UHGV virus genome: UHGV-1543656
DNA: 25,891 nt
Source: a virus
Reading direction: 5' to 3' (one strand)
Positions 404-18,241 of this stretch are shown here, piece after piece. The translations under genes and the position numbers were made by a program. The notes under the pieces were generated by a model, which had not been told where the DNA came from, searched no databases, and saw nothing but the letters and a program-made list of their open reading frames with translations. Within the stretch, counting starts at the first letter, position 1; every line of letters begins with the position of its first letter.

Positions 404-415
404 GGTCTAAATACA

Positions 416-438
416 CTATGAGGTTGATTCCTAGAACA
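416..438. repeat. 23-bp repeat ctatgaggttgattcctagaaca, copy 1 (abuts attL)
   Basis: Its perfect reverse complement is at 767-789 and a degenerate third copy at 1173-1204. Confidence 0.7.
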
Positions 439-754
439 TACCTGTTAATAACAGGACATAAACAGGTTAGTACCTATGCAATTTAACGGTGTATTTATGC
501 GCTATCTATGCAATTCTACACAGATTCTATGCAGTATCAGTATAGTCTCTTTTTACCCTAACTTATTGAAATATATAGAGAATCTGTGAAGTCTCTTTTC
601 AGGGTAAACTGTATCGTGTTAGTCGTCCCTCTCTCGACTCCTAGAAAAGTGCTATATACAGGAGTATATAACGCTATTCATGCAGTTGGTCACCATACGT
701 TACAGTTGCAAGAGATAACAATCAGCTACGTGAAAGTTAGAAAGTGATGGTTAC

Positions 755-789
755 AGTTGATTCGGTTGTTCTAGGAATCAACCTCATAG
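755..789. repeat. Inverted copy of the 23-bp repeat, extended 5' by agttgattcggtt
   Basis: tgttctaggaatcaacctcatag is the exact reverse complement of 416-438. The related copy at 1173-1204 shares both ends (agttgattcggtt ... aacctcatag). Confidence 0.7.
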
Positions 790-1519
790 TTACCTTGTCA
801 AATCTTCGTAGTCCCTTCTTAAAAAATCACTTACAGACACCTTAATATCTATACAGATTTCATGTAGAACACGATTAGTGCGTAAAACAGCTATTATGTT
901 AAAAACGTACTGTATATGTATCAGTACTGATTTATAAGGGTTTTATGTATTTGAAGATAAGAGGCTATACAGCACCTTGAGAGCATGTCTTGTAAGTCAT
1001 TGATACATAAGGTCACAGAAGTTTGTGTCTGTTAAAGAGAAAACTGGGGAGGACTTCACAGGACTATAAAATGTTACAGCTATTGATAGGTTAAATCTTC
1101 TTGATAGATGCTGTGAAATGTGATGAAGGTTTTTTTGAGGTGGAGCTAACAGATGCTATGAAGAAAGTCAATAGTTGATTCGGTTTATCGAATAAACCTC
1201 ATAGATATTTTAAAATTCTGCAAAGGGGGTCACATAGCTGGTGTGACGGGTACTTAGCAGCTACAGACATCTGTCAGATATTTTCGAAGTTTTTTAGAAG
1301 GGGAATTTGAAGAGGGGCTACTACGATTTTATAAAAATTTTCAGAGTCTGAAAAGTTACTGTACAGATTTAATACAGATATCTTTAAAGTATCTGTAAAA
1401 ACTTTTAAGATAAAAGATAGATATCCCAGAAAGGATATCCGTTTAAAAAACCTGTTAAGTATCTCTTAAAAGAGAGTAAACCTTGTCAAGAGTGATTGCA
1501 ATAAAAAATTTTATTTCTT

Positions 1520-2182
1520 ATGTCAATTGAGCATATTTTAATCGGGAAGCATCATGGTGGTTCTGATGACTGGCGTACACCGTATCGTTTATTTCGTAAC
1601 CTGCATCGTGAATTTGGTTTTTCGATGGATGGTGCTGCAACTAAGCATGACGCATTGCTACCACGGTTCACCGATGATATCCACAATCAGTCATGGGTTG
1701 GTGAAAAGGTATTCTGTAACCCACCATACAGCGATATTCCGTCGTTCCTCTTAAAAGCGTCTGAATCAGATTTAGCGGTATTCCTGATACCGTACCGACC
1801 CCACACCACATACTGGCTTAAGCACATCTTCACAAACCCGCTTTGCCATGAAATCCGTATTCTTCATCGCGCAGTTAAATACCTTCCACCAGCAGGGCAT
1901 AACGGGCTTACTACTAGGTCACCGTTTGCTGCTGCAGTCGTTGTTTTTAAAAAAGAATCACGCAGGCATGAAATTACGCAGATGGTTTGCTGTGCTGACA
2001 CGCTATTACCGTTAACCATCATTAACCGTGGTGGACTAAGAGGAAGACCCACCATTTACCCACCTGAGACGCTCGACAGCTTCATAAAGCTATACAGGCA
2101 AGGAAAACCCATTAAGTGCATTGCAGATGCTCTCAGAATGCCTCTGAGCACGTCATACAGGATTGCTCAAAGGTTGGGCTAA
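1520..2182 (+). CDS. Phage-type N6-adenine DNA methyltransferase (Dam family) with C-terminal HTH
   Basis: DDWRTPYRLF...EFGFSMDGAAT...ALLPRF...FCNPPYS matches the catalytic NPPY motif and the upstream pattern of phage Dam methyltransferases. C-terminus IKCIADALRMPLSTSYRIAQRL looks like a resolvase-type HTH. Confidence 0.75.
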   Translation: MSIEHILIGKHHGGSDDWRTPYRLFRNLHREFGFSMDGAATKHDALLPRFTDDIHNQSWVGEKVFCNPPYSDIPSFLLKASESDLAVFLIPYRPHTTYWLKHIFTNPLCHEIRILHRAVKYLPPAGHNGLTTRSPFAAAVVVFKKESRRHEITQMVCCADTLLPLTIINRGGLRGRPTIYPPETLDSFIKLYRQGKPIKCIADALRMPLSTSYRIAQRLG

Positions 2183-2565
2183 AATTCTCATAAATATGGT
2201 CATTTACAAGACAGGCGATTCAGATATTAAGAAGTATTCCTGTGAACAATAAATGACCAATCAGTAATTATTCTGTGAAATAATTGTTGCAATTTATAAT
2301 CACACATGGTATAGTTTCATAGTGGGCTGATAAAAGAACTCAGAACATTAAGAGGTTACAACGTTGGGAGGCGTCAGGGTATTGACGGATTTTCACGGCC
2401 TCTTATTCAATCAAGGCTTTTCCTTTTGCTGTTAATACTCGCGTAATCACTTAGATTTCTGGGTTCCTTTATCAGTCCATCTTCTAATTAATTCACTCCC
2501 TCTGGGGTTGGTCACTATACGTGGTCAGCCCTTTCTTTGTTTTATTTTTAAAAAGGAAAATATAA

Positions 2566-3527
2566 TGGAAAAATTTCACATGTTTGATGACCGTATTTAT
2601 CAGATGACTAATGGCGTTAAAGCTGCCGACCGTATTATTTACACTGTCATGTTGAATGAACAAAAGTTTTATCACGATAAGGGGCAATATTATACCCCTT
2701 CATATGCTCATCTTGGTCAGTATGCTGGAATCACAAGAACATCCGTGATTGCATGTATGAAACGACTTGAGGCACATGGTTTAATCAAGAAAACTAACGT
2801 TGCAAGCAATCAGTGTGTTATTAAAGTTTATTCACTTGATGAAGTACCGGAAGTTTTAACAGAGCTTACAGCTAAGGAAGCCAGAAAGGCAAAGCTGGAG
2901 TCTAAAGTTACTCAGTCAGTCAAGAAAGATGACCCACTGAGTCAAAATTCTTTACCCACTGAGTTAAAATTTTTTACTCAGTCAGTCAAAATCTTTGACA
3001 CGTATAATAACAGTAATAACAAGAAAGAACTTATTAATAACAATAAAGAAGATGACTTTGAAGAAGAATCTCTTAAGAAGGGAGCTTCGCTCTGTGATTC
3101 ACATGAATGTGATTCTCTTGATATTGAAGAGGCTATTAAAGAGACTGTTAAAACATCTGACTTAGATGACCTTGATAGTGAAGCTACTAAAGAGGCTGTT
3201 AAAAAGGAAGATAAAATCTCTGATGTGAATGAAGTTAGTGACCAGCAAGATACACCTTGCCGCCTCGAATCAACTGATGATGAATTACCGGATGTTGACC
3301 TTGATGATGAAGAAGACCCTGAAGAGGAATTGAAACGTGAACAGCGTAAAGCAGAAATTAAAGAAAGATTCAGAAAGGCTAAGCTAAAGAACAGAATTGA
3401 TGAACTTGATGACTTTGATGATAGTGACGATGATGACTTTTCTTTCACACCAAAAAAGAAAACCCACACTGAACCGAAGAAAGAAAAAGTGAAAGTAAGA
3501 CGTATTTATGCTGGAGGTATGCGCTAA
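2566..3527 (+). CDS. Winged-helix DNA-binding protein (replication-initiator or regulator-like) with long acidic low-complexity C-terminal region
   Basis: Track ORF 2508..3527; start moved to the in-frame ATG at 2566 (MEKFHMF), which has an AAGGA-like RBS. N-terminus ...AGITRTSVIACMKRLEAHGLIKK resembles a wHTH. C-terminal ~180 aa are D/E-rich with K-rich stretches. Confidence 0.45.
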
Positions 3528-3817
3528 TGAAAGAATTTCACGGTGAAAAACGATACAAAGATTACCTGTTAAAGCGTTACAGCATTTCTCGTGAGGGTCA
3601 CCTTATGAAGGATACTTATGGGGAGGTTTACCGGATTCGACCGAAGAAAGAAGGGAGGGATTATTATTTCGTCGATGGTGTGACAGATTTAAAGATTGAC
3701 GCTTTGAGGTTTGCAGTGCTGTATCATTATGATATCTGGGATTCAGTCCACCAGCTACGATTAAAAGACGGTGACCCCGGTAATCTGAGGGCCACCAATA
3801 TCATCACAAAACGTTAG
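3527..3817 (+). CDS. Hypothetical protein, possibly HNH_3-like nuclease fold
   Basis: Start overlaps the upstream stop, suggesting translational coupling. YYFVDGV...VHQLRLKDGDPGNLRATN weakly resembles the HNH_3 / NUMOD-type pattern. Low certainty. Confidence 0.35.
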   Translation: MKEFHGEKRYKDYLLKRYSISREGHLMKDTYGEVYRIRPKKEGRDYYFVDGVTDLKIDALRFAVLYHYDIWDSVHQLRLKDGDPGNLRATNIITKR

Positions 3818-4071
3818 TTTGTTTTACCATCATCAATCGTAATTGTGATTTCATATTTGAAAAGCTTAATGCTGAAATTGAATCGTGTACTTTTGGCGAT
3901 AATCATTTTTAAAAGCTGATACACCAGAAGCACCAGAAACACAAAGCAACCTAAGCTTGCGAATCTGTGAGATTCAGCAATTGTTTCAAGAAAACCCATT
4001 AACTCCCCTTATTTATCAAAGGGAATGACCTGTATCAGCCCCTATAACCATATTAACATGTAAATGAGTTG

Positions 4072-4100
4072 TTGACAATATGTTAAATATATGTTAAGAT
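4072..4100 (+). promoter_or_regulatory. Sigma70-like promoter with a direct-repeat operator in the spacer
   Basis: TTGACA (4072-4077), 17-nt spacer, TAAGAT (4095-4100). The spacer carries the direct repeat atatgttaa / atatgttaa. Followed by RBS TAAGGAG (4121-4127) and ATG at 4136. Confidence 0.5.
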
Positions 4101-4135
4101 TGTAGTATGAGTAAGAGATTTAAGGAGATTTTACA

Positions 4136-4426
4136 ATGACTCACACAGTTACACGCCTTTTGCCAGAGGCATTTGAACGACTGGCAGCAATCAAAGCTAA
4201 ATATCCCGATATGAAGCACACAGCGCTTGTTGGAGAGCTTTTAAAAGAGTCGGTATCCCTGACCCCTTTCGATAACGTTAAGGGTGTTGCAGAGGGTTCT
4301 AAGGCCATCAGAATCACAACGGGCCAACTGGAACTACTCAAAGCACAGTCCGCAGTAGCAGGTTGCTCAATGATTCAGGTGTTGAGTGCTAAGGTCCATC
4401 AACTGGCGGATAAATTGGAGGTTTAA
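4136..4426 (+). CDS. Small regulator, ribbon-helix-helix-like
   Basis: Strong SD TAAGGAG. N-terminus TRLLPEAFERLAAIKAKYPDMKHTALVGELLKESV fits the beta-strand plus two helices pattern of RHH (CopG/Arc) proteins. Confidence 0.45.
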   Translation: MTHTVTRLLPEAFERLAAIKAKYPDMKHTALVGELLKESVSLTPFDNVKGVAEGSKAIRITTGQLELLKAQSAVAGCSMIQVLSAKVHQLADKLEV

Positions 4427-4647
4427 TGTGTTACAGGTTCCAATATTCCACACTTGGCAGCCACCTAATCAGACAGAATTTAGCAGATGCTGAATTTGAA
4501 GATGTGACCCTCAAAGCAAACAAACGATTAAAACCCTCTCAAATCCACCAGCTTAAACACGAATTAAAGCCACTGGTAATACTCGACTATAACGACCCTG
4601 AACAGCTTGAGCAGGGAATTAAGCTTATTTCTGAATGGGGTGCTTGA
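4426..4647 (+). CDS. Hypothetical protein
   Basis: ATG overlaps the upstream stop (TAATG); GGAGG sits 4 nt upstream. Confidence 0.5.
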   Translation: MCYRFQYSTLGSHLIRQNLADAEFEDVTLKANKRLKPSQIHQLKHELKPLVILDYNDPEQLEQGIKLISEWGA

Positions 4648-4862
4648 TGAAAACTATCACAGTACAACTTCAGACTAATAAAGCATTTCGTTATTTTGAA
4701 AACTTGCTTGAGTTATACGAAGGATGGGGAAGCATCCACGGCAAAGATGATATCTATCTTCACTTGTCAGCCCCTAACTATTCTCTGAAGGCTCCGGTTA
4801 AGCAAAGCTGGTTAAAAGACTACGGTCACCAGATGGGGCTATTAGTCTCAGACTTGAGCTAA
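4647..4862 (+). CDS. Hypothetical protein
   Basis: Track ORF 4635..4862; start moved to the in-frame ATG at about 4647 (MKTITVQ), where the start and the upstream stop overlap. Confidence 0.45.
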   Translation: MKTITVQLQTNKAFRYFENLLELYEGWGSIHGKDDIYLHLSAPNYSLKAPVKQSWLKDYGHQMGLLVSDLS

Positions 4863-5008
4863 AAACAGTAAAACATATCTCTCAGGCTTTACCAGACGAA
4901 TTCTAAGCGATTTTAAGCCCCTAATCAGGGTAACTTAGGGAATCGCCTTAAGTGGTCTAAAAAAGGGGTTAAAACGTCTTAGAATGCGATACAGGAAGGA
5001 TTTTAAAA

Positions 5009-5314
5009 ATGAATTATTCAATGCAAGTTATGGTTGACCAAGAAACTATGAATTGGCTTAATGACCTGAACAGGTCGGGCTTTAATATCTATTTCATGCA
5101 TTGTTTTGAAGCGTCAACGTATATTGACAAGCATATAATCAACGAAATTAAACTTGGTGACTTTGTTCATAAACTGGAAGTAACAGACCCAGACTACAAG
5201 AGATTTATCACAAGCGAATGCAACCGACTTGATTTAAGCCCGGAGCAATTATTGAAGCTGAATGTATTCTTGACCTATCAGAATGAATTAAACCCTTACA
5301 GTGAGGTGATGTAA
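5009..5314 (+). CDS. Hypothetical protein
   Basis: Track ORF with GGAAGGA-like RBS upstream. Confidence 0.5.
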   Translation: MNYSMQVMVDQETMNWLNDLNRSGFNIYFMHCFEASTYIDKHIINEIKLGDFVHKLEVTDPDYKRFITSECNRLDLSPEQLLKLNVFLTYQNELNPYSEVM

Positions 5315-5391
5315 TGACACTCGTTATTCTCTGGACGGTTTTAGGGCTATTTGTTGGTTGCTGGGTAGGTAATACGGTAAATAAGAATTAA
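5314..5391 (+). CDS. 25-aa hydrophobic peptide (MTLVILWTVLGLFVGCWVGNTVNKN), small membrane peptide
   Basis: Below the track length cut-off. ATG overlaps the upstream stop (TAATG) and has a GAGGTGA RBS 4 nt upstream. One predicted transmembrane helix with a polar tail. Confidence 0.45.
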   Translation: MTLVILWTVLGLFVGCWVGNTVNKN

Positions 5392-5415
5392 TGTTACCAA
5401 TCTGTTAAAAAGCTG

Positions 5416-5444
5416 TTGACAAATAACCTTAAGCATGACATAAT
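5416..5444 (+). promoter_or_regulatory. Sigma70-like promoter (TTGACA-17-CATAAT)
   Basis: TTGACA at 5416-5421 and CATAAT at 5439-5444 with a 17-nt spacer. Confidence 0.4.
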
Positions 5445-5450
5445 TTTAAT

Positions 5451-5645
5451 TATAGAGAGAATTGCTCTCTTATTTCTTTCAACAATTCCATCTACATCTA
5501 GGGATAGTTATTCTGAAAGGTGCAATGCTTTTCGCTACATGGCCTCTTATATAACCTGAGAGGTCATCTCGAAAAGTGCTTAATCATTCATTCATTGAAC
5601 CCTTTACAGCTTTGCCCTAATCATGATTAGGGCTTTCTTTAAGAG
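5451..5645 (+). ncRNA. Candidate small non-coding RNA, promoter to terminator with no ORF
   Basis: Starts just downstream of the promoter above. 5' hairpin agagag-aattg-ctctct at 5454-5470. Ends at the terminator 5614-5640. Longest internal ORF is under 10 codons. Confidence 0.25.
5614..5640 (+). terminator. Rho-independent terminator
   Basis: Perfect 20-bp palindrome gccctaatca/tgattagggc followed by TTTCTTT. Confidence 0.65.
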
Positions 5646-5886
5646 TTTTTAAACAGAACTTTTAAAGAAAGTTTTTCCTGAAACTTCGTTAACGTTATAA
5701 AGCAAACCTCCAAAGCCCTTCACAGATAAGGATGATTCCATGAATATCCGAATCACCTATGTTTAGGGCTTTTTCAGCTTTTAAAAAGCATACTTGGCAA
5801 ACCGCCTTTTAAGTCTCTTCTAAGTTTAGATAGGCTGTCAGGTGTGCTTTTTAAAAACTGAATATTACTTAGAAGAGGAAAATGAA

Positions 5887-6594
5887 ATGGAAAATCTATA
5901 TATTAACGGTAAAAAGATTGATAGCTTCGGTGACTGGTCACCACAGACTGAACATCCAGCTATCGCTATTCAGCGCAAAGAGCACGATGAAAGAATTGCA
6001 CTTGAGCAAGAGTTAAAGATGTCACCAAAGGAAATCATCTTTGTGACTCCTGAACCTCAAGAGATGCCTGATGTATGCAAAACTGAATCATTACTTGAGC
6101 TTGAGCGTGAATATTACCCACTACTGAAAGCACAAAGAATTAAACTTGATATTGCTTACGATGCGGTTAAGAACTTCGAAGAAACCTCGAAACCTTCAGA
6201 ATATGATATTGCTTACGAGATTAAGTCAAACCCGTTTATCTATTATGAAGGAAACTTTAATGATGGTTTTGGTACAGCGATTGAAGACGTTCCTAAAGTT
6301 CTTCAAAGTATCCCTGAAGGGTTCCGGTTAATTGATGTCAGACAAGCATTAAGGGGTTCTGGTCAATTTATTTTGACGACTGATAAAACAGATGAAGAGA
6401 TTCTTCAGTTAGCTGAAGCTAATTTGACTAAGCATTATTCCGGTAAACTGGATAAGTTAAAGCAAAAGCTTAAAAAAGAACTTGATAGCATGAAAGCGAT
6501 TATTAGTGACTATGAAACGCAGAAGAAGGTTGCTATGCAGGCTGATATTGAGCAGTTAACGAAGATTTCTCAGAAATACAGCAAAGCACTTTGA
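5887..6594 (+). CDS. Hypothetical protein
   Basis: Track ORF 5842..6594; start moved to the ATG at 5887 (MENLYING), which has an AGAGGAAA RBS. Confidence 0.55.
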   Translation: MENLYINGKKIDSFGDWSPQTEHPAIAIQRKEHDERIALEQELKMSPKEIIFVTPEPQEMPDVCKTESLLELEREYYPLLKAQRIKLDIAYDAVKNFEETSKPSEYDIAYEIKSNPFIYYEGNFNDGFGTAIEDVPKVLQSIPEGFRLIDVRQALRGSGQFILTTDKTDEEILQLAEANLTKHYSGKLDKLKQKLKKELDSMKAIISDYETQKKVAMQADIEQLTKISQKYSKAL

Positions 6595-6617
6595 TTATGA
6601 ATTAAAAGAGGTGATTA

Positions 6618-6827
6618 ATGTTTGAAGAACGTTTAGAGACTATTCGGTCTGTTTGTGAAAACTTAAAGTTACAAACTAAGCCAGCCTTAAGAATTAAAAC
6701 CAAACATCAAATTATCACCTCACGCAAACCAAAAACACGCAAGATTCCAAAGTGGTGTATCGACCGTATCCCTTCCGATGCTCAAATTATAGGTGAAACG
6801 GAACTACATTATCTTGTCAGGCATTAA
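6618..6827 (+). CDS. Small basic hypothetical protein
   Basis: Strong RBS AGAGGTGA just upstream of the ATG. Confidence 0.5.
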   Translation: MFEERLETIRSVCENLKLQTKPALRIKTKHQIITSRKPKTRKIPKWCIDRIPSDAQIIGETELHYLVRH

Positions 6828-6876
6828 AAAAGATTGGTTGGGTGTATGAGATAGGTTCTATCGAATCTATAACACG

Positions 6877-6918
6877 GGGAGAGATTATCGATATTATTCG
6901 GTAGTTTCTCCCTTTTTT
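6877..6918 (+). terminator. Terminator-like hairpin followed by a T6 run
   Basis: gggaga ... tctccc then tttttt. The loop is long, so this is uncertain. Confidence 0.35.
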
Positions 6919-6925
6919 GTATGTG

Positions 6926-6996
6926 TGCTACGTGAAATCTTCTGAACAGATATACCCACCAAAAATTATTTTTTACGTAGCTCACGCTTAACAGAG
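6926..6996 (+). promoter_or_regulatory. Conserved 71-nt cis-element, copy A, upstream of the tape-measure-domain gene
   Basis: Terminal blocks tgctacgtgaaatct and cacgcttaacagag are identical to copy B at 9071-9141, with the same 57-nt offset between blocks. Internal blocks atacccac and ttacgta are shared. Confidence 0.55.
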
Positions 6997-7010
6997 GTGA
7001 AATATGAACA

Positions 7011-9059
7011 ATGGCACAATTTAAAGTTGATAGTTTTATCGTTGAGCTAGGCTTCAGCGAGAACGTTATTAAGGGCTTGCAAAGAGTTGAAAAGGCAGCT
7101 TTGCAGTCAGCACAAAGAATTGAACGTAATTTGAATAGAGCGTTTAAGGTCGATACCAAGCAACTTGACAGCAATCTGACAAGTTCTTTAGGGCAACTTG
7201 AAAGGAAGTTTAATAAGACCTTTGACAAGATTGAGCAGCGTCTTAAAAACACTAGAGCGTTTAAGATTAAAACGGAAATTGAGGATACTTTAAAGCCACT
7301 TAGACAGCCAAGACAGCCACGAATTAGCGGCAACAGAGCAATCACAGCGGCTTATTCAGCGAATATGTCTAAGCTGAAAGGTCTTAACCCAATTGTCGAG
7401 AAATACATTAAGAGTCAGTTTTACGCATTAAGTAGTAAATCCAAGACACTTGGAAACGAAGCTTTTAATCGTGAGTTAGCAAAGTTAAATCAAAATCTAC
7501 GTGAAACACTTTCTAAGTTTAACAAGACCACCAGCAAAAATAATCACAGTGAAAATGCTTCAAATGGTTTAGATGTACTAGCTTCAAGTGCAATTAAAGC
7601 GGGTACGGCTATTTACACTTTTCAAAGTGCTTTGGCAGCTTATCAGCGAGTAATGGAAATTGGTTTACAGCGTGCAAGTGCTGAACGTTCAATTGATTTC
7701 GTATTTGATAAAGATGCAGGTCAGGTAAAAGAGTTCACAAAGTCATTAGCTCAAACAACGGGTTTAGATATCGCTGAACTGCAATCACAGTTTGCTGGTT
7801 TCGGTGCTTCAGCTAAAGAGTCTATGGGTATTCAAGGTTCTGAAGAACTTTTTAGAAGTATGATTGGCTATTCTCGTCTGATGGGTCGAAGTGAAGAAGA
7901 GATTAAGCGAGCACTGACAGCATTATCACAGATGGCTGGTAAGGGTCAGGTTATGGCTGAAGAGCTTAAGGGGCAACTAGCTGAAGCTGTTCCTGGTATG
8001 GTTCAGGTATTCGCTAAAGCAACCGGAAAGACTGAACAGGAATTATTTGATGCCATGAAGAAGGGGGCTTTAAAATCTGCCGATACTCTTCAGAAGGTCA
8101 CTCAGGAACTGAATAGACAAATCACCGCTAAAGGTGGCTGGAAAGCTATTTCAGAAAGTACACAGGCACAATTAGGGAACCTGAAAAACTCTTGGAATAC
8201 CACGCTTGATAGTATCTTCAGAGGTTCTGAAAGTGGTCTGCAAGATTTTACAAGAAGCTTAACAACGCTTTTAAACGCTCTTGGTGGAAGTGGTAAAAGT
8301 CTTGGTGAATCTCTTGGTAGCTTGATGACTGATATGTCACATGGTGTCGATAGTCTGGCCGATATTAGTTACAAGGTGCGAGCGTTCTTTGATGAGGTGA
8401 CATTAGCTTATCGTGGTTTAACCGATGAACAAAAGAAAGTTGTTGATGCTTTAGGTTCTGGCTTGATTAATAGTTTAAAAGTCTTGGCTGGTGTTATTGC
8501 TGTAAATAAAGTTGTTGGTGTAACCAGAAGTATTTACGGGCTTATGACTGCTATCACAAGATTAGGTCAGGTTGCTGATACTACAGCGGATAACGTGAAT
8601 AGAAAGAATGGGAAACCATCAAGACTGAATCTTGGGAATATGCTATTAGCTGGTAGCGCTCTCTATGCAGGTTATGAAAGACTAGCCTCTACACCTGAAC
8701 GAATGGAAGCACAAGCTAAATTACCAGAGTTAGCTAAAGAATCTGGACTTAAGCCAGTATTTACTATGGACGATGTGAAAGGTTGGTTTAATAGTGCAGC
8801 TATGAATCTTGCTAACTTCCAGCATCCAGAATTAATCACCATGAGACAAGATGCGGCATTAACGAATACGGATATCCAAAGCCTGAGAGATGAAATTAGT
8901 GCTTTGAGCAAACGTATTCAGGAGCCTGTGAAAGTTTCACTTGGTGGTGAAGTTGCCATTAAACCAGATGAAACCAGCTTTATGACCTTTAGCAGTAATA
9001 TCTACGACCAATACGCAGAAGCTACGCTATTAAGTTCATCATTCCCAGAAGATGATTGA
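7011..9059 (+). CDS. Protein with phage tail tape-measure-type domain
   Basis: 682 aa. Central segment SEEEIKRALTALSQMAGKGQVMAEELKGQLAEAVPGMVQVFAKATGKTEQELFDAMKKGALKSADTLQKV matches the tape-measure domain signature as I recall it. N-terminal part is predicted coiled coil. Confidence 0.55.
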   Translation: MAQFKVDSFIVELGFSENVIKGLQRVEKAALQSAQRIERNLNRAFKVDTKQLDSNLTSSLGQLERKFNKTFDKIEQRLKNTRAFKIKTEIEDTLKPLRQPRQPRISGNRAITAAYSANMSKLKGLNPIVEKYIKSQFYALSSKSKTLGNEAFNRELAKLNQNLRETLSKFNKTTSKNNHSENASNGLDVLASSAIKAGTAIYTFQSALAAYQRVMEIGLQRASAERSIDFVFDKDAGQVKEFTKSLAQTTGLDIAELQSQFAGFGASAKESMGIQGSEELFRSMIGYSRLMGRSEEEIKRALTALSQMAGKGQVMAEELKGQLAEAVPGMVQVFAKATGKTEQELFDAMKKGALKSADTLQKVTQELNRQITAKGGWKAISESTQAQLGNLKNSWNTTLDSIFRGSESGLQDFTRSLTTLLNALGGSGKSLGESLGSLMTDMSHGVDSLADISYKVRAFFDEVTLAYRGLTDEQKKVVDALGSGLINSLKVLAGVIAVNKVVGVTRSIYGLMTAITRLGQVADTTADNVNRKNGKPSRLNLGNMLLAGSALYAGYERLASTPERMEAQAKLPELAKESGLKPVFTMDDVKGWFNSAAMNLANFQHPELITMRQDAALTNTDIQSLRDEISALSKRIQEPVKVSLGGEVAIKPDETSFMTFSSNIYDQYAEATLLSSSFPEDD

Positions 9060-9070
9060 TAATAGTCGAA

Positions 9071-9141
9071 TGCTACGTGAAATCTGTAAAGCTAATACCC
9101 ACACTGAAAAATAGAATTTACGTACAACACGCTTAACAGAG
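9071..9141 (+). promoter_or_regulatory. Conserved 71-nt cis-element, copy B, upstream of the 264-aa gene
   Basis: See copy A. The 11-mer GCTACGTGAAA also occurs at 726-736. Confidence 0.55.
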
Positions 9142-9216
9142 AAAACACTTATATATCAAAGGCTTGGTTAAAAATGATTAAAATACACTAAGCCTTTGAA
9201 ATCAAAGGGGAATTTA

Positions 9217-9990
9217 ATGATTTACTCTAACCAAATCAAATATAGTGGCAAAGACGGCATCTATTTCCACTTAAGAGATAATGTAGATGCCTTCTTAACC
9301 TTATCAGCAACTGAAAACATGGAATTTGATAGTCCTATGCAGGTGACTACACAGAACATGCAATCAGGACAAACCGTTACAGATAATGTGCAAAGAGCAC
9401 CCAGAACAATCACTATTAGTGGTGTCGTTGTAGTTGGCTATGAAGGAAGCTTATTATTAACTCGTCAGGGTCAATTAGTAGAAAACTTCATCGACACTCT
9501 TGAAAGCTGGCGTGACCAGAAACAGATTATTTCGGTCATCTGTAAAGACGGAATTAAAATTGACGATTCCATTATTACGAGTTTTAAAGCCTCTAAAGAT
9601 GTGGGGATTTCAAACGGTCTAAGAATCCAGCTAACTTTTCAGGAAATTAACTTCAAAGCTATTGTTGGTCAGACTGATATTTCTGCTGCAACTGGAAAGA
9701 CTGCTACCACGAATGATGGTGGTGCAACTTCTAAGAAGAACACTGGTAACACTACGACAAGTCTAGGTAATGGTATGTTGCTGTGTCAGGAGCTATATAA
9801 TCGCTCTACGAGTGAACTCACTAATGAGCAACTTCAAGCCCGTATCAATTGTGGTAAAAGTGTCAAAGTTGAGAATGGAAAAAGCACCTTCTCAGATGCC
9901 GCTAATGCGCAAGCTTCAAAGGTGCTTAATAATGCTGGTACAGGTAGTACTTTGAAGAAATTTTCTGTGAATCCTAACAAGCGATTCTGA
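9217..9990 (+). CDS. Hypothetical protein, possibly virion or tail-tip associated
   Basis: Track ORF 9196..9990; start moved to the ATG at 9217 (MIYSNQ), which has an AAGGGG RBS. Beta-rich N-terminal half and a Thr/Gly/Asn-rich linker. Functional guess rests only on its position after the tape-measure-domain gene. Confidence 0.4.
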
Positions 9991-10004
9991 CGATAGAATC
10001 TCAA

Positions 10005-11528
10005 CTATATGATAACCTCATCAACATCTATCAACCCCCTCTCAGTGACTTCAGAAAGCGACTGTATAGCCTCTGTAACGTCCTCTGAGGGGGTTTCTGT
10101 TATTGGTAGGGTGATTGACTTACTATTGTGAAAAGTTACTTTACAGCGACGTTTAGCAGTATTTAAAATGACCTCTTTAACAGCACTTTTGATTATCAGT
10201 TGTGCTTCAATCCTTCCCGCCTTTGTAGTCAAGTCACAATCAGACAAACAACCAACATCAATAGATTTAAGGCGTTGTGTCTCCTTCTCGATATCCGCAT
10301 CAACCTGTGATAGCTCACCTTTTAACTGTTTTAGTTTGCTGGTAATAGCGGACAAGTCTTCAATTTCAAGTGATAGCTGTACCAGCTTTTCAATATTGCT
10401 TGAGATGTGTTCACGGTGTAGCTTCAGTGTGTCTATGGTATTCGTCATATCGCTATCAAATCGGTCTATACGGGATAGCAGGGCAAGCAATGTACCATCG
10501 GTTTGCTTACGTGAAAGTCCTTTAGCACTACAACGGTTTTCATTACGAAGAGGACAACGATAAATCCCGTTTCTTGTATCGCTAAAGCCTGTGATAATCA
10601 AAGCATGACCACATTCAGAACAACGGATAACACCTTTGAAAAGATTCACACTCAATGGTTTATCTGAAGCAGGCTTTCTTCCATAACGAGAATATGATAG
10701 TTGCTGGACTTTGTAGAAATCAGTCTCAGGGATGATAGGGGGGAAATAACCAGCTATCTCCTCACAGCCTTTAGGTGTGAAGTAACCAATTACAGAGCGA
10801 TTTTTCAGAAGGTCTTGCACTGAGGTTTGACCAAACTTACCTGCTTTGTACTGGTTAAGTGTCTGGTGACCTTCATCATTAAGAGTCCTGACAATCTCCC
10901 AAATAGACTTACCCTCTAACCGTAATTGAAAGCACCTCTTCACAGTTTCTACCTTCTCAGGTATCACAGAGAAGGTCTTACGGTCATCATTAAGCTTAAG
11001 CCATGCAGGACAACGCTTATAAATCTTGATACCGGCTTTAGCAGCTTCTTTCTTTGCATCCCATGCAGCTTGGATACGTTCAGATTTACGCAAACTCTCC
11101 TCATGCGACCGCTGCATTATCAAAATGCTTTTAATCAGAGCTAACGGGTCTTTTAAGCTTTCCTTTGTGTAATGTTCACCATCGGACAAGGTGACCACAT
11201 CTACACCAGAGCGAAGAATGTTTCTGAGTAGCTCACTTGCTTGGTCTACATCTTGACGTGACAGACGGTCAAGAGATTCTATCAAGAGCGTATCACCAGC
11301 TTTAACAAGCCCTTTCTCGATAGCGGTTAAAAAGTCACCTAAGCCACCTTTCAAGTGCTTACCAGTGAACCCACTCACCCCCAAATCACGAAAAGATAAA
11401 TCTTGGTCAAGGTAGTACTCAGGATGAGCCTTAAGCCAGTCATTAACCATCTTAGACTGTCGGCGTAATGAATCACCTCGGGATTGCTTCTCAGATGAAA
11501 ACCTGATGTAAGAAATGGCACGTTTCAT
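10005..11528 (-). CDS. Large serine recombinase (integrase)
   Basis: N-terminal resolvase-type catalytic domain (YIRFSSEKQ with the catalytic Ser, then SLDRLSR). Followed by a recombinase domain, a Cys-rich zinc ribbon (CSECGH...YRC) and a C-terminal coiled coil. Sits next to attR. Confidence 0.9.
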   Translation of the reverse strand: MKRAISYIRFSSEKQSRGDSLRRQSKMVNDWLKAHPEYYLDQDLSFRDLGVSGFTGKHLKGGLGDFLTAIEKGLVKAGDTLLIESLDRLSRQDVDQASELLRNILRSGVDVVTLSDGEHYTKESLKDPLALIKSILIMQRSHEESLRKSERIQAAWDAKKEAAKAGIKIYKRCPAWLKLNDDRKTFSVIPEKVETVKRCFQLRLEGKSIWEIVRTLNDEGHQTLNQYKAGKFGQTSVQDLLKNRSVIGYFTPKGCEEIAGYFPPIIPETDFYKVQQLSYSRYGRKPASDKPLSVNLFKGVIRCSECGHALIITGFSDTRNGIYRCPLRNENRCSAKGLSRKQTDGTLLALLSRIDRFDSDMTNTIDTLKLHREHISSNIEKLVQLSLEIEDLSAITSKLKQLKGELSQVDADIEKETQRLKSIDVGCLSDCDLTTKAGRIEAQLIIKSAVKEVILNTAKRRCKVTFHNSKSITLPITETPSEDVTEAIQSLSEVTERGLIDVDEVII

Positions 11529-11578
11529 TGTTCACCTCAAAACTGATGCCCTAGATTGTATCGTTTTAGATGGTGTAT

Positions 11579-11980
11579 TTAAACGTGTCTAATAAAAATC
11601 ACCCGATTAACGCCGCGCTGATGTAAACCGCGATTAAGCGTTTGTTCCTCTTCCCCTTTGGCGAAAAACTGTGGATGGCGGACTTCCACCCCATAATTAA
11701 ATTCACCGGGAAGAGAATCGAGAAAATGCCAAAGCGCAGGCAGCTCCCGTGGGCCGAATGTGGCAGGCAGTTGCAGCCAGTATTGTCCAATGCGCGGAGC
11801 CAACGGTGACATGCGGGTCAAAAATTCAGTCACTAAATCATCGCAATGCCGTAATGCTGCCTGATGCGAAATGGTCGCCGGAAACTTAAAACAGAAGCGG
11901 AAGTCATCTGTGGTCTGCTCACGCCAGCGCAGGACAACCTCGGGTTTCGGCAGGGCATAAAGCGTGGTGTTACCCTCCAC
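11579..11980 (-). pseudogene. yecE: 5'-proximal fragment of the host DUF72-family gene, truncated at its 5' end by the prophage and at its 3' end by the serine-integrase element
   Basis: Track ORF starts at a GTG. The in-frame upstream sequence has no ATG back to a stop at about 12038. NCVEGNTTLYALP matches the conserved N-terminal motif of DUF72 proteins. It continues in frame into 53..403 once the insertion is removed. Confidence 0.6.
11595..11601. repeat. attR core (AAAATCA) of the serine-integrase element
   Basis: Junction read aataAAAATCAcccgatt: element sequence to the left, host sequence to the right. Confidence 0.6.
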
Positions 11981-12006
11981 GCAGTTAACATGACGGGTAT
12001 TAAGGA

Positions 12007-13320
12007 TTAACTTACTGATTTTAATAAGCCTCTGGTGTCACTTTGGTGACTATGGGGCATCATTGGGACATAATCTGTCAGCTTCTGATTCAGCATTGCG
12101 ATCTGTTCTGCATTGCTGTCAGTCATCCATGCTCCGTATACATTGAATACCATCTGGGCACTTGCATGGCCCATCTGGCTGGCAATGAAGCTTGGGTTTG
12201 CTCCGGCAGATAATGACCAGCACGCATAAGTGTGTCGTGACTGGTATGCCTTTCGATGCCTGATCCCTGCACGCTTAATGGCTGTTTCCCATGAGTCACC
12301 TACAGAATCGACTTTGTAGACAAAACCTACCTGTTCGCTTTTTCTAACCACTTGAGGGTTAAACACGAAAGTACATTCATGGTTCACTGAACGTCCATAT
12401 TCACGTAGTTGCACCTTGATGTTGTACTGCTTACCCAGTCTTGTCATTTCAGCCTGATTTTTCAGGACACTGATAGCGGGCTGGATAAGGTGCACAACCC
12501 TGTTTGTGCTTGCTTCAGTTTTCGGTAGAGTGAACTCACCAAGTTTCGTATAATTGCGCCTGATGGTAATTGTTCCTGCCTTCAGATCGATATCTTCCCA
12601 GGCCAGGGAGACCAGTTCACCGTGACGCATTCCTGTGTACACAGCCAATGACCACAGGTTTTTCGTCTGCTGATGTCGGCAAGCATCTATCAGGCGAATA
12701 AATTCGTCACGAGTTAGCGGATCTGGCTCTGCCCTGGCTCTTTTAAGAGGCTTAATTCCCTGGAAGGGATTTGCTTCTAAGTAACCGTGATCTGCAGCAA
12801 ACTGAAACATTCCAGCGATTGTCGTCATGTAATAATTTACAGTAACGACGCTCCGTCCTTTTGCTGCTGCTTTGTTTTTCGTTGAATTCTGATACCCGGT
12901 CAGCAAATCTTTCCTGATATACAGCAATTCCTCTTTGGTTACCGATGACACCAGTTTACTGCCTCCAATTTTCGGAACCATCGTTCTTGCAACGGATTCA
13001 TAGCGATTGAATGCATTTGCAGAGATTTCCATTCGTTTCAGATCCAGCCACTTTTCTTCAAGTTCCTTCACCGTAATTTCTTTTTTACTTACCCCAAAAG
13101 CCTGAAGGTTGGGGGAGTCAGGGAACTGTGCAGCATAATCAAAGCTTCCTGTGCGGATGGCAAAACATACTGATGTCCGCAGTTCCCCGGCGATCTTCCT
13201 GTTCTTGGCAGTGTCAGGGACACCAAGATTTTCCCTGACACGTTTACCTTTAAAATTAAACCAGATGCGTAATGTGCCGCCGTGGTTTTCGACGCCTGTT
13301 GGATATTTGACTTTATCCAT
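12007..13320 (-). CDS. int: Tyrosine-type phage integrase
   Basis: C-terminal catalytic region HRKAYQSRHTYACWSL...GHASAQMVFNVYGAWM carries the R..HxxR..Y signature. Located at the prophage end next to xis. Confidence 0.9.
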   Translation of the reverse strand: MDKVKYPTGVENHGGTLRIWFNFKGKRVRENLGVPDTAKNRKIAGELRTSVCFAIRTGSFDYAAQFPDSPNLQAFGVSKKEITVKELEEKWLDLKRMEISANAFNRYESVARTMVPKIGGSKLVSSVTKEELLYIRKDLLTGYQNSTKNKAAAKGRSVVTVNYYMTTIAGMFQFAADHGYLEANPFQGIKPLKRARAEPDPLTRDEFIRLIDACRHQQTKNLWSLAVYTGMRHGELVSLAWEDIDLKAGTITIRRNYTKLGEFTLPKTEASTNRVVHLIQPAISVLKNQAEMTRLGKQYNIKVQLREYGRSVNHECTFVFNPQVVRKSEQVGFVYKVDSVGDSWETAIKRAGIRHRKAYQSRHTYACWSLSAGANPSFIASQMGHASAQMVFNVYGAWMTDSNAEQIAMLNQKLTDYVPMMPHSHQSDTRGLLKSVS

Positions 13321-13375
13321 CGATACCTCCAGACGCCCAAGAGCGATACGAGCTTACATATTTCATGATATTAAA

Positions 13376-13612
13376 TCACCTGGGTTGTTTGTTTTTCATT
13401 GAGGCGACCCAGGCATCTATTGCTTTTCTGTTATACATACATTCACTGGAAGGCTTTGGATTACCGTCTGGTGATACGTGAATATACTCTCTTCCAACCA
13501 TCCAGCATTCTTTCCGGGCCCGAAGAATTGTGCCTGGTTTGAGCCCGGTAATTGCGATAAGAACGCTTTCACAAACCCATTCATTGGGAGCCAGTTGAAT
13601 CACATTGCCCAT
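13376..13612 (-). CDS. xis: Excisionase-like protein
   Basis: 78 aa, immediately upstream of int. WVCESVLIAITGLKPGTILRARKECWMVGREY resembles the small excisionase family of E. coli lambdoid prophages. Confidence 0.7.
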   Translation of the reverse strand: MGNVIQLAPNEWVCESVLIAITGLKPGTILRARKECWMVGREYIHVSPDGNPKPSSECMYNRKAIDAWVASMKNKQPR

Positions 13613-13620
13613 GTATTACC

Positions 13621-13767
13621 TCACACAACACTCAGCCCACGGCAGTGGCACCACACTTCAAACATTCGTTTCACAATTTCACGACAGTAGAAGCCGTCAA
13701 CATCTCGCGTCAGGTCATAGCGATTGCCGTAACGCTGGCGCACCCATAGCTCAAACGCTTTATTCAT
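13621..13767 (-). CDS. 48-aa Cys-rich small protein (MNKAFELWVRQRYGNRYDLTRDVDGFYCREIVKRMFEVWCHCRGLSVV)
   Basis: Below the track cut-off. AAGGAAG RBS 6 nt upstream. Its stop overlaps the xis RBS (GTGTGAGGTAATACATG). Confidence 0.4.
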   Translation of the reverse strand: MNKAFELWVRQRYGNRYDLTRDVDGFYCREIVKRMFEVWCHCRGLSVV

Positions 13768-13770
13768 TCT

Positions 13771-14010
13771 TTACTTCCTTTTCATGGCCCGTAATTTTTT
13801 CAGATGAGCCTCCTGCTCTGTTTCTGCCAGAATTTGTCGGTATTCCTGGTGATCAATCCGTTCAAACAGTTCATTGAAATCGTTTATTTTTACTGACTGT
13901 GTTCGCCCATCAATTCTTCTGTACAACACAGTGTTGTTTATGCAGCGAATAATTATTACCGGGTAACCGGCACTGTCGGTATACAGTTGTCCCTGATTAA
14001 TCAAAGCGAA
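13771..14010 (-). CDS. Hypothetical protein
   Basis: Track ORF 13771..14136; start moved to the internal ATG (MFALINQ) with an AGGAG RBS, which removes the overlap with the upstream gene. Confidence 0.5.
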   Translation of the reverse strand, partial: FALINQGQLYTDSAGYPVIIIRCINNTVLYRRIDGRTQSVKINDFNELFERIDHQEYRQILAETEQEAHLKKLRAMKRK

Positions 14011-14044
14011 CATTTTTTCTCCTGCTCTCTGAATAGTGAGAACT

Positions 14045-14350
14045 TCAGAGCCGTATGTTTGTAGCGGGTTCAATACTGATAATTTCTGCTGAGATAAGCA
14101 TCCCGGCAAGCCAGAGCTCTCCGGACAGGTCTTCATCCTGGCATGTCAGTTCGCCAATATTAATGGTGGCCATGATATCTGTTTCCCCTGTACGCTCATC
14201 CTCGACTTCTTCATAAGGCAGCGTTGCGTACAGGCTTTCAATAGCGCAACTGATAACATCGAGTCCGGTCAGGTTGCCACCGACAGTGACTTCGAATGTT
14301 TCGCGGTATTCCCATTGCCCGAAAGTTAATCGAACGGTTTGTTTCGCCAT
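14045..14350 (-). CDS. Acidic hypothetical protein
   Basis: Track ORF 14045..14386; start is likely the internal ATG at 14350 (MAKQTV). Confidence 0.45.
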   Translation of the reverse strand: MAKQTVRLTFGQWEYRETFEVTVGGNLTGLDVISCAIESLYATLPYEEVEDERTGETDIMATINIGELTCQDEDLSGELWLAGMLISAEIISIEPATNIRL

Positions 14351-14457
14351 GCGTCCGCATGACGTCAGATTTGGGTCATAGTTCATTATTTGCGGTTGAG
14401 TATTATGAGTGTTTATCTGCTTTTCCCTTAGCCCGACGGCCTGCCGGGCATATTAAG

Positions 14458-15285
14458 TTATTTAACCTGGATAAATGGTGTATTGGCACCGCTGGTCATG
14501 TATTGCGGCAGCGTGCCGTTCCATTTATTGATGGCTTCCAGCTCCATAACACCGGGGTTCTGACGCAGAGCTTCACCGCGTAAACGAATAGCATCGGCTT
14601 CAGCCTGGGCTTTTGTGCGAATCGCATCAGCCTGTCCGGCAGCTTCCGCGCGCAACATGTTGGCTTCCGCTTCGCGCTGTTTTACTTCCTGCTCGCGTTG
14701 CAGAGTTTTCTGGTTCGCCGTGACTTTGGCATTAATGCTGTCGATAACAGTAGGCGGGTACTCCGGCTTACCCACATATGAGAGGCTTATTACCTGAATA
14801 CCGATGGGCGTCATTTCTTCCTGAATGTCTTTAAGAGCTGCATCCAGCAGCTCAGACTTGCCGCCGTCGATAAATTTGTCGGTGGTCATTTTGCTGGCCA
14901 GTCGGTTGAGTGCGTCGGCTATCTTCTGGCGCAGGTCGGTGTCGGTAATGTCGTCCACGCCTTTGCGGTAGGTCTGAAAGACTGTGGTAACTTTGGATGG
15001 ATCAACCTTGTAGGCTACTCCGATGTGGTAACCAATGGTTGTTCCATCGCTCATCTGGAAACTGAATGGATCATCGTAGGTCTTCATCTGCTTAAAGGTC
15101 GGGAAGATATAAACTTCAGTGTTCCAGCCTGTCCAGTAGCGACCAACACCGACCACTTCACCGACGCCTTTGTCGTCGCCAAGTTTGTTGACTTTGATGC
15201 CCACATTACCAGGCTCAACACGATCACAACCGACAAGGCCAATGGCAGGCAGAACAATGGCTAAAGAAAAAATAATTTTTTTCAT
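14458..15285 (-). CDS. SPFH/band-7 (prohibitin-family) lipoprotein
   Basis: Signal peptide with lipobox LVGC. SPFH-like core beginning VEPGNVGIKV, followed by an Ala/Glu/Arg-rich helical tail. AAGGA RBS. Confidence 0.75.
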   Translation of the reverse strand: MKKIIFSLAIVLPAIGLVGCDRVEPGNVGIKVNKLGDDKGVGEVVGVGRYWTGWNTEVYIFPTFKQMKTYDDPFSFQMSDGTTIGYHIGVAYKVDPSKVTTVFQTYRKGVDDITDTDLRQKIADALNRLASKMTTDKFIDGGKSELLDAALKDIQEEMTPIGIQVISLSYVGKPEYPPTVIDSINAKVTANQKTLQREQEVKQREAEANMLRAEAAGQADAIRTKAQAEADAIRLRGEALRQNPGVMELEAINKWNGTLPQYMTSGANTPFIQVK

Positions 15286-15470
15286 CTTTTATCCTTAGTG
15301 AAAGAAAGCCCCTTATAAATGGTATAAATACATGGCGGGGTTAGAAACGTCAGTGCAAAGCCAGAAATCACCGCTACCGTATCCTTCATTGATATCAGAA
15401 ACGGGACGAGCAATCCGTAAATACATGCGATAATTGCCAGTGATATAACTATTCTGAAATAAATGTTCAT
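15282..15470 (-). CDS. Small membrane protein (two predicted TM helices), translationally coupled to the SPFH gene
   Basis: AGGAGG RBS. Its stop overlaps the SPFH start codon (ATGA). Confidence 0.6.
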   Translation of the reverse strand: MNIYFRIVISLAIIACIYGLLVPFLISMKDTVAVISGFALTFLTPPCIYTIYKGLSFTKDKR

Positions 15471-15530
15471 GGTCCTCCTGCTGTATTCAGCTTGCCTTAT
15501 TTAATTGCGTCATGGTTAATTTCGTTTACG

Positions 15531-15923
15531 TCAGAATGGTTTTGTTGCCATCAGTTCGTAATATCCGGCGCTCCATGTGTCATATTTTCTGAACCATTTT
15601 TCTGTATACTGTTTCCTGGCGATGAGTCTGCGCAGTCGTCTGATTGTTCGCTGGTGTGCGCGGGTGTACTCTGTGGTTGATTCTCCACGTTTCCATATTT
15701 CATTCCCGTTGAAGATAAAACGCTTGTCAGGATGGCGTTGTCGGAATCCTGAACGTTCAAAAGCGCGGGTGGTCATAAAGAATGCCAGGTAACGAATTGC
15801 CGTTTTTCGAGTGAGGCATTTTTTTGTTCTTCCGTGATGTGTTACAAAAAATAACGGGCCGACGGGTGTATCATGTTTCTGTAATGCCTGGTCAATGGCG
15901 CTGGCGGTGCGGTTGTCGATCAT
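15531..15923 (-). CDS. Basic hypothetical protein
   Basis: Track ORF; Arg/Lys-rich C-terminal half; sits inside the leftward operon. Confidence 0.45.
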   Translation of the reverse strand: MIDNRTASAIDQALQKHDTPVGPLFFVTHHGRTKKCLTRKTAIRYLAFFMTTRAFERSGFRQRHPDKRFIFNGNEIWKRGESTTEYTRAHQRTIRRLRRLIARKQYTEKWFRKYDTWSAGYYELMATKPF

Positions 15924-16684: not shown

Positions 16685-16687
16685 TTG

Positions 16688-16801: not shown

Positions 16802-16879
16802 AATAAATCCTCCTGTGGATTAAGATTGTAACAATCCCCGGCGATAAAACCGCAATAAACGTTCAGAGCATATTTGTTG

Positions 16880-18237: not shown

Positions 18238-18241
18238 GAGA

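Follow-up and report, generated by a model that had tools for sequence, protein, structure and literature searches.

Two inverted boxes at a fixed spacing ahead of two tail-type genes in an Escherichia coli island, and their relatives in P1-type phage-plasmids

The stretch of DNA analysed here (25,891 nucleotides of UHGV virus genome UHGV-1543656, hereafter the window) is chromosomal sequence of E. coli JNEC-KY173 and includes an island of about 11.2 kb (404-11596) that splits the yecE gene (DUF72) and carries two copies of a 71-nucleotide (nt) element ahead of two adjacent genes of phage tail type. Copy A (6926-6996, + strand) lies between an intrinsic-terminator-like hairpin and a tape-measure gene (7011-9059, + strand) of the Ounavirinae type, with 28-29% amino acid identity over the full length, and copy B (9071-9141, + strand) lies between the stop codon of the tape-measure gene and a Dit-like gene (9217-9990, + strand), a homologue of the gene 3' of the tape-measure gene in Felixounavirus. 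The other island genes encode an adenine methyltransferase, an O-like replication initiator, several small unknown proteins, proteins of 250 and 69 amino acids, and a large serine recombinase (10005-11528, - strand). Comparison with related islands, taken from E. coli genomes, IMG/VR and metagenomes, and with P1-type phage-plasmids reveals two inverted boxes held at a fixed distance, and tentatively suggests that the element is read as DNA, as a promoter or operator joined to a leader.

A repeat search ranked the two copies first among the direct repeats of the island (71 nt, gap-free, 73% identity), and their alignment agrees with the original prediction that the 5' 15 nt (TGCTACGTGAAATCT) and the 3' 14 nt (CACGCTTAACAGAG) are identical between them and in the same register. 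The 11-mer GCTACGTGAAA, reported at three places, does have exactly three sites on the + strand (725-735, 6927-6937 and 9072-9082), the first of which had been placed one nucleotide too far along, at 726-736. With at most one mismatch allowed, the 11-mer has five matches (the three exact sites and two more) against an expected 0.38, and five were reached in none of 100 shuffles. Both copies are imperfect inverted repeats, in which GCTACGTGAAA, close to the 5' end, is followed some 44 nt further on by TTTYACGTAGC. In copy A, the left box GCTACGTGAAATCT occupies 6927-6940 (invariant core CTACGTGA, 6928-6935), the right box TTTTTTACGTAGC, which is the left box inverted at a distance of 44 nt from start to start, occupies 6968-6981 (core TTACGTAG, 6973-6980), and the 3' block CACGCTTAACAGAG at 6983-6996 leads into GAGGTG, the Shine-Dalgarno sequence of the tape-measure gene. 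In copy B, comparison with the other copies places the left box at 9072-9085, the right box at 9113-9126 (core TTACGTAC, 9118-9125) and the 3' block, identical to that of copy A, at 9128-9141; all of these features are on the + strand.

Copy A begins 7 nt past the T-run of the strong terminator-like hairpin that had been predicted in front of it (hairpin 6876-6913, to 6919 with the T-run, + strand), which closes the gene pair for the 250- and 69-amino-acid proteins. The terminator alleles are of two types (GGGAGAGATTATCGA...TCGGTAGTTTCTCCC and GGGGAGAGATTAACCTTAATTGGTTGGTCCTCCCC, in the window as compared with loci L007, L016, L023, L029, L045, L059 and L061), and the two differ on both sides of the stem yet both still pair, which speaks for the hairpin as a real RNA structure. 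Copy A is present in about 20 related loci and absent from about 17, where the terminator T-run is followed directly by GTATGAGGTGAAATATG or else by inserts of 16 or 37 nt; between the terminator and the ribosome-binding site of the tape-measure gene, islands have inserts of 0, 16, 37 or 71 nt as alternatives. In the islands without copy A, the tape-measure gene must be reached by read-through. In essentially all islands of the family, copy B separates the stop codon of the tape-measure gene from the start codon of the Dit-like gene. In the window it is followed, before the Dit-like start codon, by a second stable hairpin (9148-9207, + strand; z-score -3.2) that is confined to this allele type; in other islands the 3' block leads directly to a Shine-Dalgarno sequence and an ATG.

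Across the islands, the two boxes (CTACGTGAA and TTYACGTAG) are inverted with respect to each other, with a variable centre between them, and their starts are 44 nt apart in 64 of 67 island instances; in the other three, a 27-nt insertion lengthens the left box. No variation is seen in CTACGTGA of the left box, in TYACGTA of the right box, in CACGCTTAA 3' of the right box, or at a few scattered positions of the centre. Three of these centre positions and the fixed distance between them define a hexamer, TAnnnT, which each of the 38 distinct island copies has directly 5' of its right box (TATTTT in 17, TAGAAT in 12, TAGATT in 8 and TAGTTT in 1); it reads TATTTT in copy A (6967-6972, + strand) and TAGAAT in copy B (9112-9117, + strand). 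The 46 distinct sequences are mosaic, with left-box extensions, centres and right-box variants assorting freely, and alleles found at position A in one island are found at position B in another. In the metagenomic lineages L047 and L048 the centre is unrelated in sequence yet of exactly the same length, and the same is true of L068, L070, L075, L076, L078 and L085. The 3' block is partly a ribosome-binding-site context, TTAA(C)AGAGGTGA, which the gene for the 69-amino-acid protein also uses (6602-6614), and in many copies a start codon follows the block within 15-35 nt. A blastn-short search of the island for an antisense partner of the element returned only the known copies and this shared context at 6602-6614.

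The third left box, GCTACGTGAAA at 725-735 (+ strand), lies in the left non-coding region of the island and is conserved in 14 islands, though with variants. A box on the - strand at 855-869 is its inverted partner and part of a third right half, ACAGATTTCATGTAGAACACGATTAG (AGATTTCATGTAGAACACGATTAG, AGATTTCAYGTAGAACACGATTAG; about 845-880, + strand), that includes some of the 3' block and sits in the left control region without any upstream gene. The members of this pair are 134 nt apart rather than 44, or 101 nt in islands that do not have a 33-nt insert. An exact CTACGTGAA box is also found within the coding sequence of the tape-measure gene (7497-7505), about 570 nt past copy A and in the same place in L038, L048 and L051; its presence may be a coincidence of the coding sequence. 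A very small insertion element, the ends of which are conserved (TGATTCGG...CCTCAT), accounts for a 33-nt presence/absence polymorphism at 756-788, with a related copy at 1174-1206, and a 24-nt version of it, flanked by duplicated TGA, lies in the left box of copy A at three loci (L010, L026 and L028). The 3' end of this insertion element is the reverse complement of the extreme left end of the island (a 24-nt perfect inverted repeat, 415-438 and 767-790).

An nhmmer search with a profile of six copies found the 67 instances in 47 related loci, and BLAST located the element in 446 of 5426 complete E. coli genomes, at 686 places in all and a median of two per genome, all chromosomal and none on plasmids; no match was found in 50,697 phage records. 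The presence of a conserved cis-element ahead of two adjacent genes of a satellite-like island is thus borne out, and a recent local duplication without conservation in relatives, which the original prediction had set against it, does not fit these numbers. In the phage counterpart the tape-measure gene and the gene that follows it overlap, with no intergenic DNA between them, and a relative of the island in E. albertii has this phage-like overlapping arrangement of tape-measure and Dit-like genes and no element. The element is old and under selection, and purifying selection on boxes of 9-14 bp within a fast-changing segment points to a function that would be read from the sequence.

Relatives of the element were found by scanning IMG/VR with CTACGTGA-N37-TYACGTAG, which matched the island copies and about a dozen large viral contigs with longer boxes (GCGCTACGTGAAATCTG ... 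CAGATTTCACGTAGCGC) and mutually unrelated centres. With the gap left free at 22-50 nt, 12 of 15 IMG/VR matches had the single spacing of the island; with GAAATCTG-N(15-29)-CAGATTTC as the pattern, chance palindromes dominated the matches. Comparison of two carrier contigs with phages and plasmids by BLAST recognised one of them, as P1-like, and phage P1 (L100, AF234172) has the element at 116-174, between lox and cra, with boxes GCGCTACGTAAAATCTG ... CAGATTTCGCGTAGCGC. The P1 left box contains the annotated -10 hexamer (TAAAAT, 124-129) of the sigma-70 promoter P3cre (formerly pR1), the -35 region of which carries Dam sites, and the start codon of cra (207) is 33 nt past the right box. The split palindrome with 17-bp arms between P3cre and cra is not a feature of the P1 record, and no description of it was found in the literature searched. 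Among 80 P1-like loci, the boxes are nearly invariant (with a rare single-base variant in each), the centre is polymorphic, and two internal box mismatches persist in nearly all.

Inverted boxes of the form CTACGTRAA / TTYRCGTAG are common to both window copies, the 67 island instances, P1 and 10 other viral contigs. In all carriers the element is 9-41 nt 5' of the first open reading frame and in the same orientation, and outside the island this is mostly the start of a cre-like recombinase operon; in distant phage-plasmids the boxes precede unrelated operons, one copy per genome. The 3' flanks are homologous (P1, CGTAGCGCACTTAGCACC...CAGAGGTGAAAAATG; L068, CGTAGCGCACGCTTACTTAGCC...AGAGGTG; island, CGTAGCTCACGCTTAACAGAGGTGAAATATG) and share C[GT]CAC..TTA, as CTCACGCTTAACAGAGGTGAAATATG in the island, CGCACGCTTACTTAGCC..AGAGGTG in L068 and CGCACTTAGCACC..AGAGGTGAAAAATG in P1. 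The element belongs to an unnamed family, the best-known member of which lies unannotated before cra-cre of P1. The island copies resemble the P1 cre operon leader in having two boxes, the 44-nt register, a variable centre, the 3' flank (CGCAC..TTAGC ... AGAGGTGAAAAATG) and the same distance to the first start codon. They differ from it in lacking the upstream part, since the P1 element is preceded by a -35 region with Dam sites and has its -10 within the left box, whereas the island left box has G for A at the key -10 position (TGAAAT) and the island has TAnnnT beside the right box instead; moreover, the island copies serve tail genes, and the P1 element a recombinase.

The explanation that we lean towards, though with somewhat less than even confidence, is that the repeat is a portable DNA-level cassette of promoter or operator plus leader. 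Two recognition boxes, CTACGTGAAATCT and AGATTTCACGTAG (core YACGTR), would be held exactly 44 bp apart and would bracket a centre that is free in sequence and fixed in length; TAnnnT, touching the right box, would act as the -10 hexamer, and transcription would start near A6979 in copy A and near A9124 in copy B. The left box would then be centred near -45 and the right box would span about -8 to +2, and the 3' block (CTCACGCTTAA...) would provide the first bases of a short 5' untranslated region leading into the Shine-Dalgarno sequence. With no usable -35, initiation would be gated by a protein that recognises the sequence of the boxes; copy A would give the tape-measure gene, and copy B the Dit-like or tube-initiator gene, a switched start of its own. 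The reader would be a protein common to all carriers, encoded by the host or by a helper phage (or induced by infection), and not a variable accessory protein of the island: accessory genes differ wildly between islands, the boxes are constant and P1-type elements share them, which makes a host-encoded or infection-induced protein a better candidate than an island-encoded one. Only the recombinase, tape-measure, Dit-like, 69-amino-acid and 250-amino-acid protein genes are universal across 50 loci, and the 69- and 250-amino-acid proteins diverge to 23-41% identity while the boxes stay constant.

This promoter reading draws on the anatomy of the element, the conservation of boxes and spacing, the homology to the P1 cre leader, the location of the P3cre -10 within the P1 left box and the recurrence of the right half in the left control region. 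The proposal of a promoter or a leader role fits the position of the element, which lies 15-35 nt from start codons and follows a terminator in the case of copy A and a stop codon in that of copy B. A -10-type hexamer, with T as its first, A as its second and T as its sixth base, stands at one fixed position in 38 of 38 distinct island copies. An RNA leader finds no covariation to support it. From the sequence, we infer promoter activity in the island and a reader protein, which may act by activation or by repression. Several observations weigh against the promoter reading. No consensus sigma-70 promoter is called in the element, and most alleles have no -35 match (16-18 bp upstream, the best is TGAACA, at 18 bp in some alleles, others having AAAGCT or AAAGTT). 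TAnnnT is not kept in the divergent copies of L047 and L048 or in the P1-type relatives, which have CAGATT in its position. A promoter in front of the tape-measure gene is dispensable in about half of the islands, which have no copy A and in which the gene begins a few bases past the terminator T-run, so that this gene does not require copy A. Searches of Pfam, PHROGs, NCBIfam and PADLOC for a box-reading protein among the island genes gave nothing for the small open reading frames or for the 250- and 69-amino-acid proteins, and box pairs are not enriched in the Felixounavirus genome garuso. Finally, the arms can pair, the + strand RNA folding better than shuffles (z-scores of -1.2 to -3.9), and the one variable pair follows the G-C / G-U / A-U path expected of RNA.

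These last two observations would be accommodated if the element were instead an RNA leader or intercistronic hairpin, present within a longer messenger RNA (made by read-through in the case of copy A, and from the tape-measure gene in the case of copy B), in which the stem and the single-stranded 3' block would control processing, stability or translation, in the manner of a protective 5' stem-loop left by cleavage or of an RNase III-type site as between T7 genes. We consider this rather doubtful. Among 29 distinct island copies, 84% of the cells in the proposed arms are paired, a share that falls to 18-45% with a slid partner; six central pairs are constant, and one variable core pair is GU in 15 copies, GC in 13, AU in 1 and A-C in none. 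Individual island copies fold with z-scores of -2.0, -1.2, -2.7 and -3.9 on the + strand and about 0 to -0.6 on the - strand, and P1-type copies form stems of 14-17 bp (z-scores of about -1.3 to -5.2), as the long arms dictate. The element is always just 5' of a ribosome-binding site, copy B is intercistronic, and read-through transcripts presumably exist, as the islands without copy A need them for the tape-measure gene; processing by host RNases would also remove the need for an island-specific reader. Against this stands the behaviour of the pairs themselves. The covariation that the original prediction proposed to look for across homologous copies was not found: there are no compensatory changes in 29 island and 80 P1-type copies, and the outer pairs are broken in 5-19 of the island sequences. 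With a structure of 14 pairs specified, none of five measures was above the shuffle control and the covariation score was not above all slid-partner controls; RNAalifold kept a stem of only 7 bp with a 37-nt loop (-4.9 kcal/mol, 0 compensatory pairs among 7), and Rfam gave no match in the element at the gathering score or at E up to 1, over 400-11600. The stability of copy B of the window does not significantly exceed that of shuffles, an A-C mismatch persists in the sense strand of P1-type copies, a hairpin offers no reason for an exact loop length across unrelated sequences, and the annotated P1 promoter would start within the loop and yield a transcript without the left arm. What is conserved is sequence and spacing and not pairing, which favours recognition of double-stranded DNA at two sites, but the G-C / G-U / A-U pattern and the general foldability keep the RNA reading alive.

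The original prediction went on to link the element, as a possibility, to a helper phage, by way of a late activator that would switch the genes on; in that case the element would copy or mimic the late promoters of Felixounavirus and respond to the late transcription factor of the helper. Both served genes are helper-type tail genes, the island copies other non-coding DNA of the helper (1402-1459, 88% identical to garuso), and the missing -35 would fit dependence on an activator. Nevertheless, such a link is very unlikely: garuso was searched for the end blocks, the boxes, ATACCCAC and box pairs and none were found, the regions 5' of its late-module genes show no resemblance on inspection, and the element and its boxes are equally absent from the 50,697 phage records. 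The relatives of the element precede cre in P1-type phage-plasmids, where the function is early or for maintenance, and are neither Lpa-dependent late promoters nor Ounavirinae sequence, and the late promoters of P1 itself have a different box. Equally improbable, in our estimation, is a recombination linker that has no regulatory role, the end blocks of which would be homology anchors for the exchange of tape-measure cassettes and small inserts between islands or between copies A and B. Such exchange would account for mosaic, freely assorting alleles shared by the A and B positions, for tape-measure alleles that are 44-100% identical in amino acids between islands, and for the alternative inserts of four lengths between the terminator and the tape-measure ribosome-binding site; it leaves unexplained the inverted symmetry, the exact spacing, the invariant TAnnnT and the occurrence of the same boxes before unrelated operons in distant phage-plasmids with a single copy per genome, and the purifying selection on the boxes again points to their being read.

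Several known classes of element were considered and set aside. The repeat is not an intrinsic terminator, as a loop of 27-37 nt is followed by CTCACGCTTAAC without a U-run and a terminator scan calls only the upstream hairpin at 6876-6913. A miniature inverted-repeat transposable element would have inverted ends, which are present, but copies are found only at the two island positions, at a median of two per genome and none on plasmids, and comparison of the filled with the empty site shows no flanking duplication. As for an attachment site of the serine recombinase, the island ends (AAATACAC... and ...GTGTATTT, and the repeat at 415-438 and 767-790) share nothing with the boxes, a weak comparison given that the attB and attP cores are only roughly defined. 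Judged by eye, spacing or key bases fail for sigma-54, sigma-32, sigma-E, sigma-28 and extracytoplasmic-function sigma factor promoters, a T7-type promoter, the operators of CRP, FruR and GalR type, chromosomal parS, a DnaA box (ATACCCACA, in the centre) and a NusB/E boxA (CGCTTAACA as compared with GCTCTTTAACA). The boxes contain the heptamer ATTTCAC of the P1 ParB boxA, but there is no boxB and the arrangement is wrong; there is only one RYYYAAC match to an integron attC, and the MOBQ nic site TAAGTGCGC is on the wrong side. TACAGAT, a candidate promoter word shared by phage and island, is not enriched in the intergenic DNA of garuso.

Short regulatory cassettes in front of phage or satellite genes are a known kind of thing, and four systems invite comparison. 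The Lpa-dependent late promoters of P1 are similar to the island copies in having a -10 without a -35 and an upstream box, in a genome that also carries the element, but their box is a single one of 9 bp at -22 (AAGTGACTT-like, 4 bp 5' of the -10) that is unrelated to CTACGTGAA, and none of the six annotated P1 late promoters resembles the boxes. The late promoters of P2 and P4, which depend on Ogr or Delta, are the classic case of satellite genes switched on together with the late genes of a helper: satellite and helper late promoters have in common a dyad, TGT-N12-ACA, at about -55, which a zinc-finger activator of helper or satellite recognises. As in the island, morphogenetic genes of the satellite are preceded by a short element that contains a dyad and lacks a good -35; the boxes of the island, however, are absent from its presumed helper, and no activator gene is conserved in the island. 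The PeSL cassettes of T4-type phages, which Arbiol and colleagues are said to have described in 2010, reportedly combine an early promoter of sigma-70 consensus with an adjacent terminator stem-loop, are mobile and mediate modular shuffling. They are comparable as conserved regulatory cassettes of about 70 nt that precede individual genes and drive mosaic exchange by their similarity; in the island cassette, by contrast, the promoter-like part lies between inverted boxes, a U-run is missing, and there is no sequence relationship. Like the island, PLE of Vibrio cholerae and other satellites are small, with a large serine recombinase, a replication initiator of their own and no capsid or terminase genes, and are tied, in the case of the island by sequence, to a virulent myovirus; unlike PLE, the island has helper-type tape-measure and tube-initiator genes, and it has no detectable homology to PLE proteins. 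In the literature searched, neither the two-box form with a fixed register nor its placement in front of captured tail genes has a precedent.

The island as a whole looks like a satellite or defence element that would be tied to virulent Felix O1-like phages. As expected of a phage satellite, it has its own serine recombinase and O-like initiator, no full set of virion genes, and sequence ties to a helper; capsid, portal and terminase or other packaging genes are absent, and the tape-measure and Dit-like genes are its only structural genes. The first 136 nt of the tape-measure gene are 79% identical to Felixounavirus garuso, and 544 nt of the Dit-like gene (9232-9775) have 93-95% DNA identity to more than 200 Felixounavirus genomes. 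The tube initiator of Felixounavirus Bas63 is the product of the gene that comes after the tape-measure gene (PMC12609058); to judge from gene order, the island Dit-like gene would be the homologue of that gene. A 4-kb segment of the island matches 481 of 5426 complete E. coli genomes, and the accessory genes are highly mosaic between islands. Neither a Felixounavirus satellite nor the box sequence was found to be described in the literature searched.

Other parts of the island also have features of interest. The 58-nt non-coding segment at 1402-1459 that resembles garuso (57722-57777, in the divergent region between gp95 and gp96) holds a conserved palindrome (AGATATCC..GGATATCT), and a second non-coding segment at 1326-1366 is 83% identical to garuso 50074-50115, within a gene-free region of 1.6 kb. 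Three near-consensus sigma-70 promoters are found at 2283-2312 (TTGCAA-17-TATAGT), 4069-4098 (TTGACA-17-TAAGAT) and 5412-5441 (TTGACA-17-CATAAT), the last of which is followed by about 430 nt without an open reading frame, including a terminator-like hairpin (5613-5640), and may produce a small RNA or a long leader. A split palindrome just 5' of the gene for the 250-amino-acid protein (5773-5862) has 27-nt arms that are 85% complementary and 36 nt apart, and one of its arms is related to 3892-3919. Within the replication-initiator gene, three tandem-like 25-nt repeats (3129-3216, GAGGCTATTAAAGAGACTGTTAAAA) look like iterons of an intragenic origin, by analogy with lambda O. A separate lambdoid prophage (11597-25891) lies in tandem in the same yecE, with a tyrosine integrase at 12007-13320 and, at 20206-20394, Rfam matches to C4 antisense RNA (82 bits) and isrK (59 bits), immunity RNAs of the P1/P7 type.

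In its widest form, which we think unlikely as a whole, the promoter reading would make the cassette a widely shared and unrecognised switch: a conserved host protein or a phage-induced one would read the boxes at the 44-bp register, P1-type phage-plasmids would use it to set the expression of cre, and an undescribed family of E. coli satellites that exploit virulent Felix O1-like phages would have captured and duplicated it, firing the tape-measure and tube-initiator genes at just the right time during helper infection and thereby re-programming or sabotaging tail assembly. The strict rule of boxes plus spacing is a simple search pattern for more carriers, and as the same cassette precedes cre of P1, a phage that is among the best studied, a reader protein found in one system would explain the other. 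If the cassette is a switch, it offers a handle on the timing of the two tail proteins of the island, which about 8% of complete E. coli genomes contain and which its sequence links to virulent Felix O1-like phages, widely used for typing and biocontrol, and it raises the question of whether a chromosomal element may re-program or poison the tail of a lytic phage.

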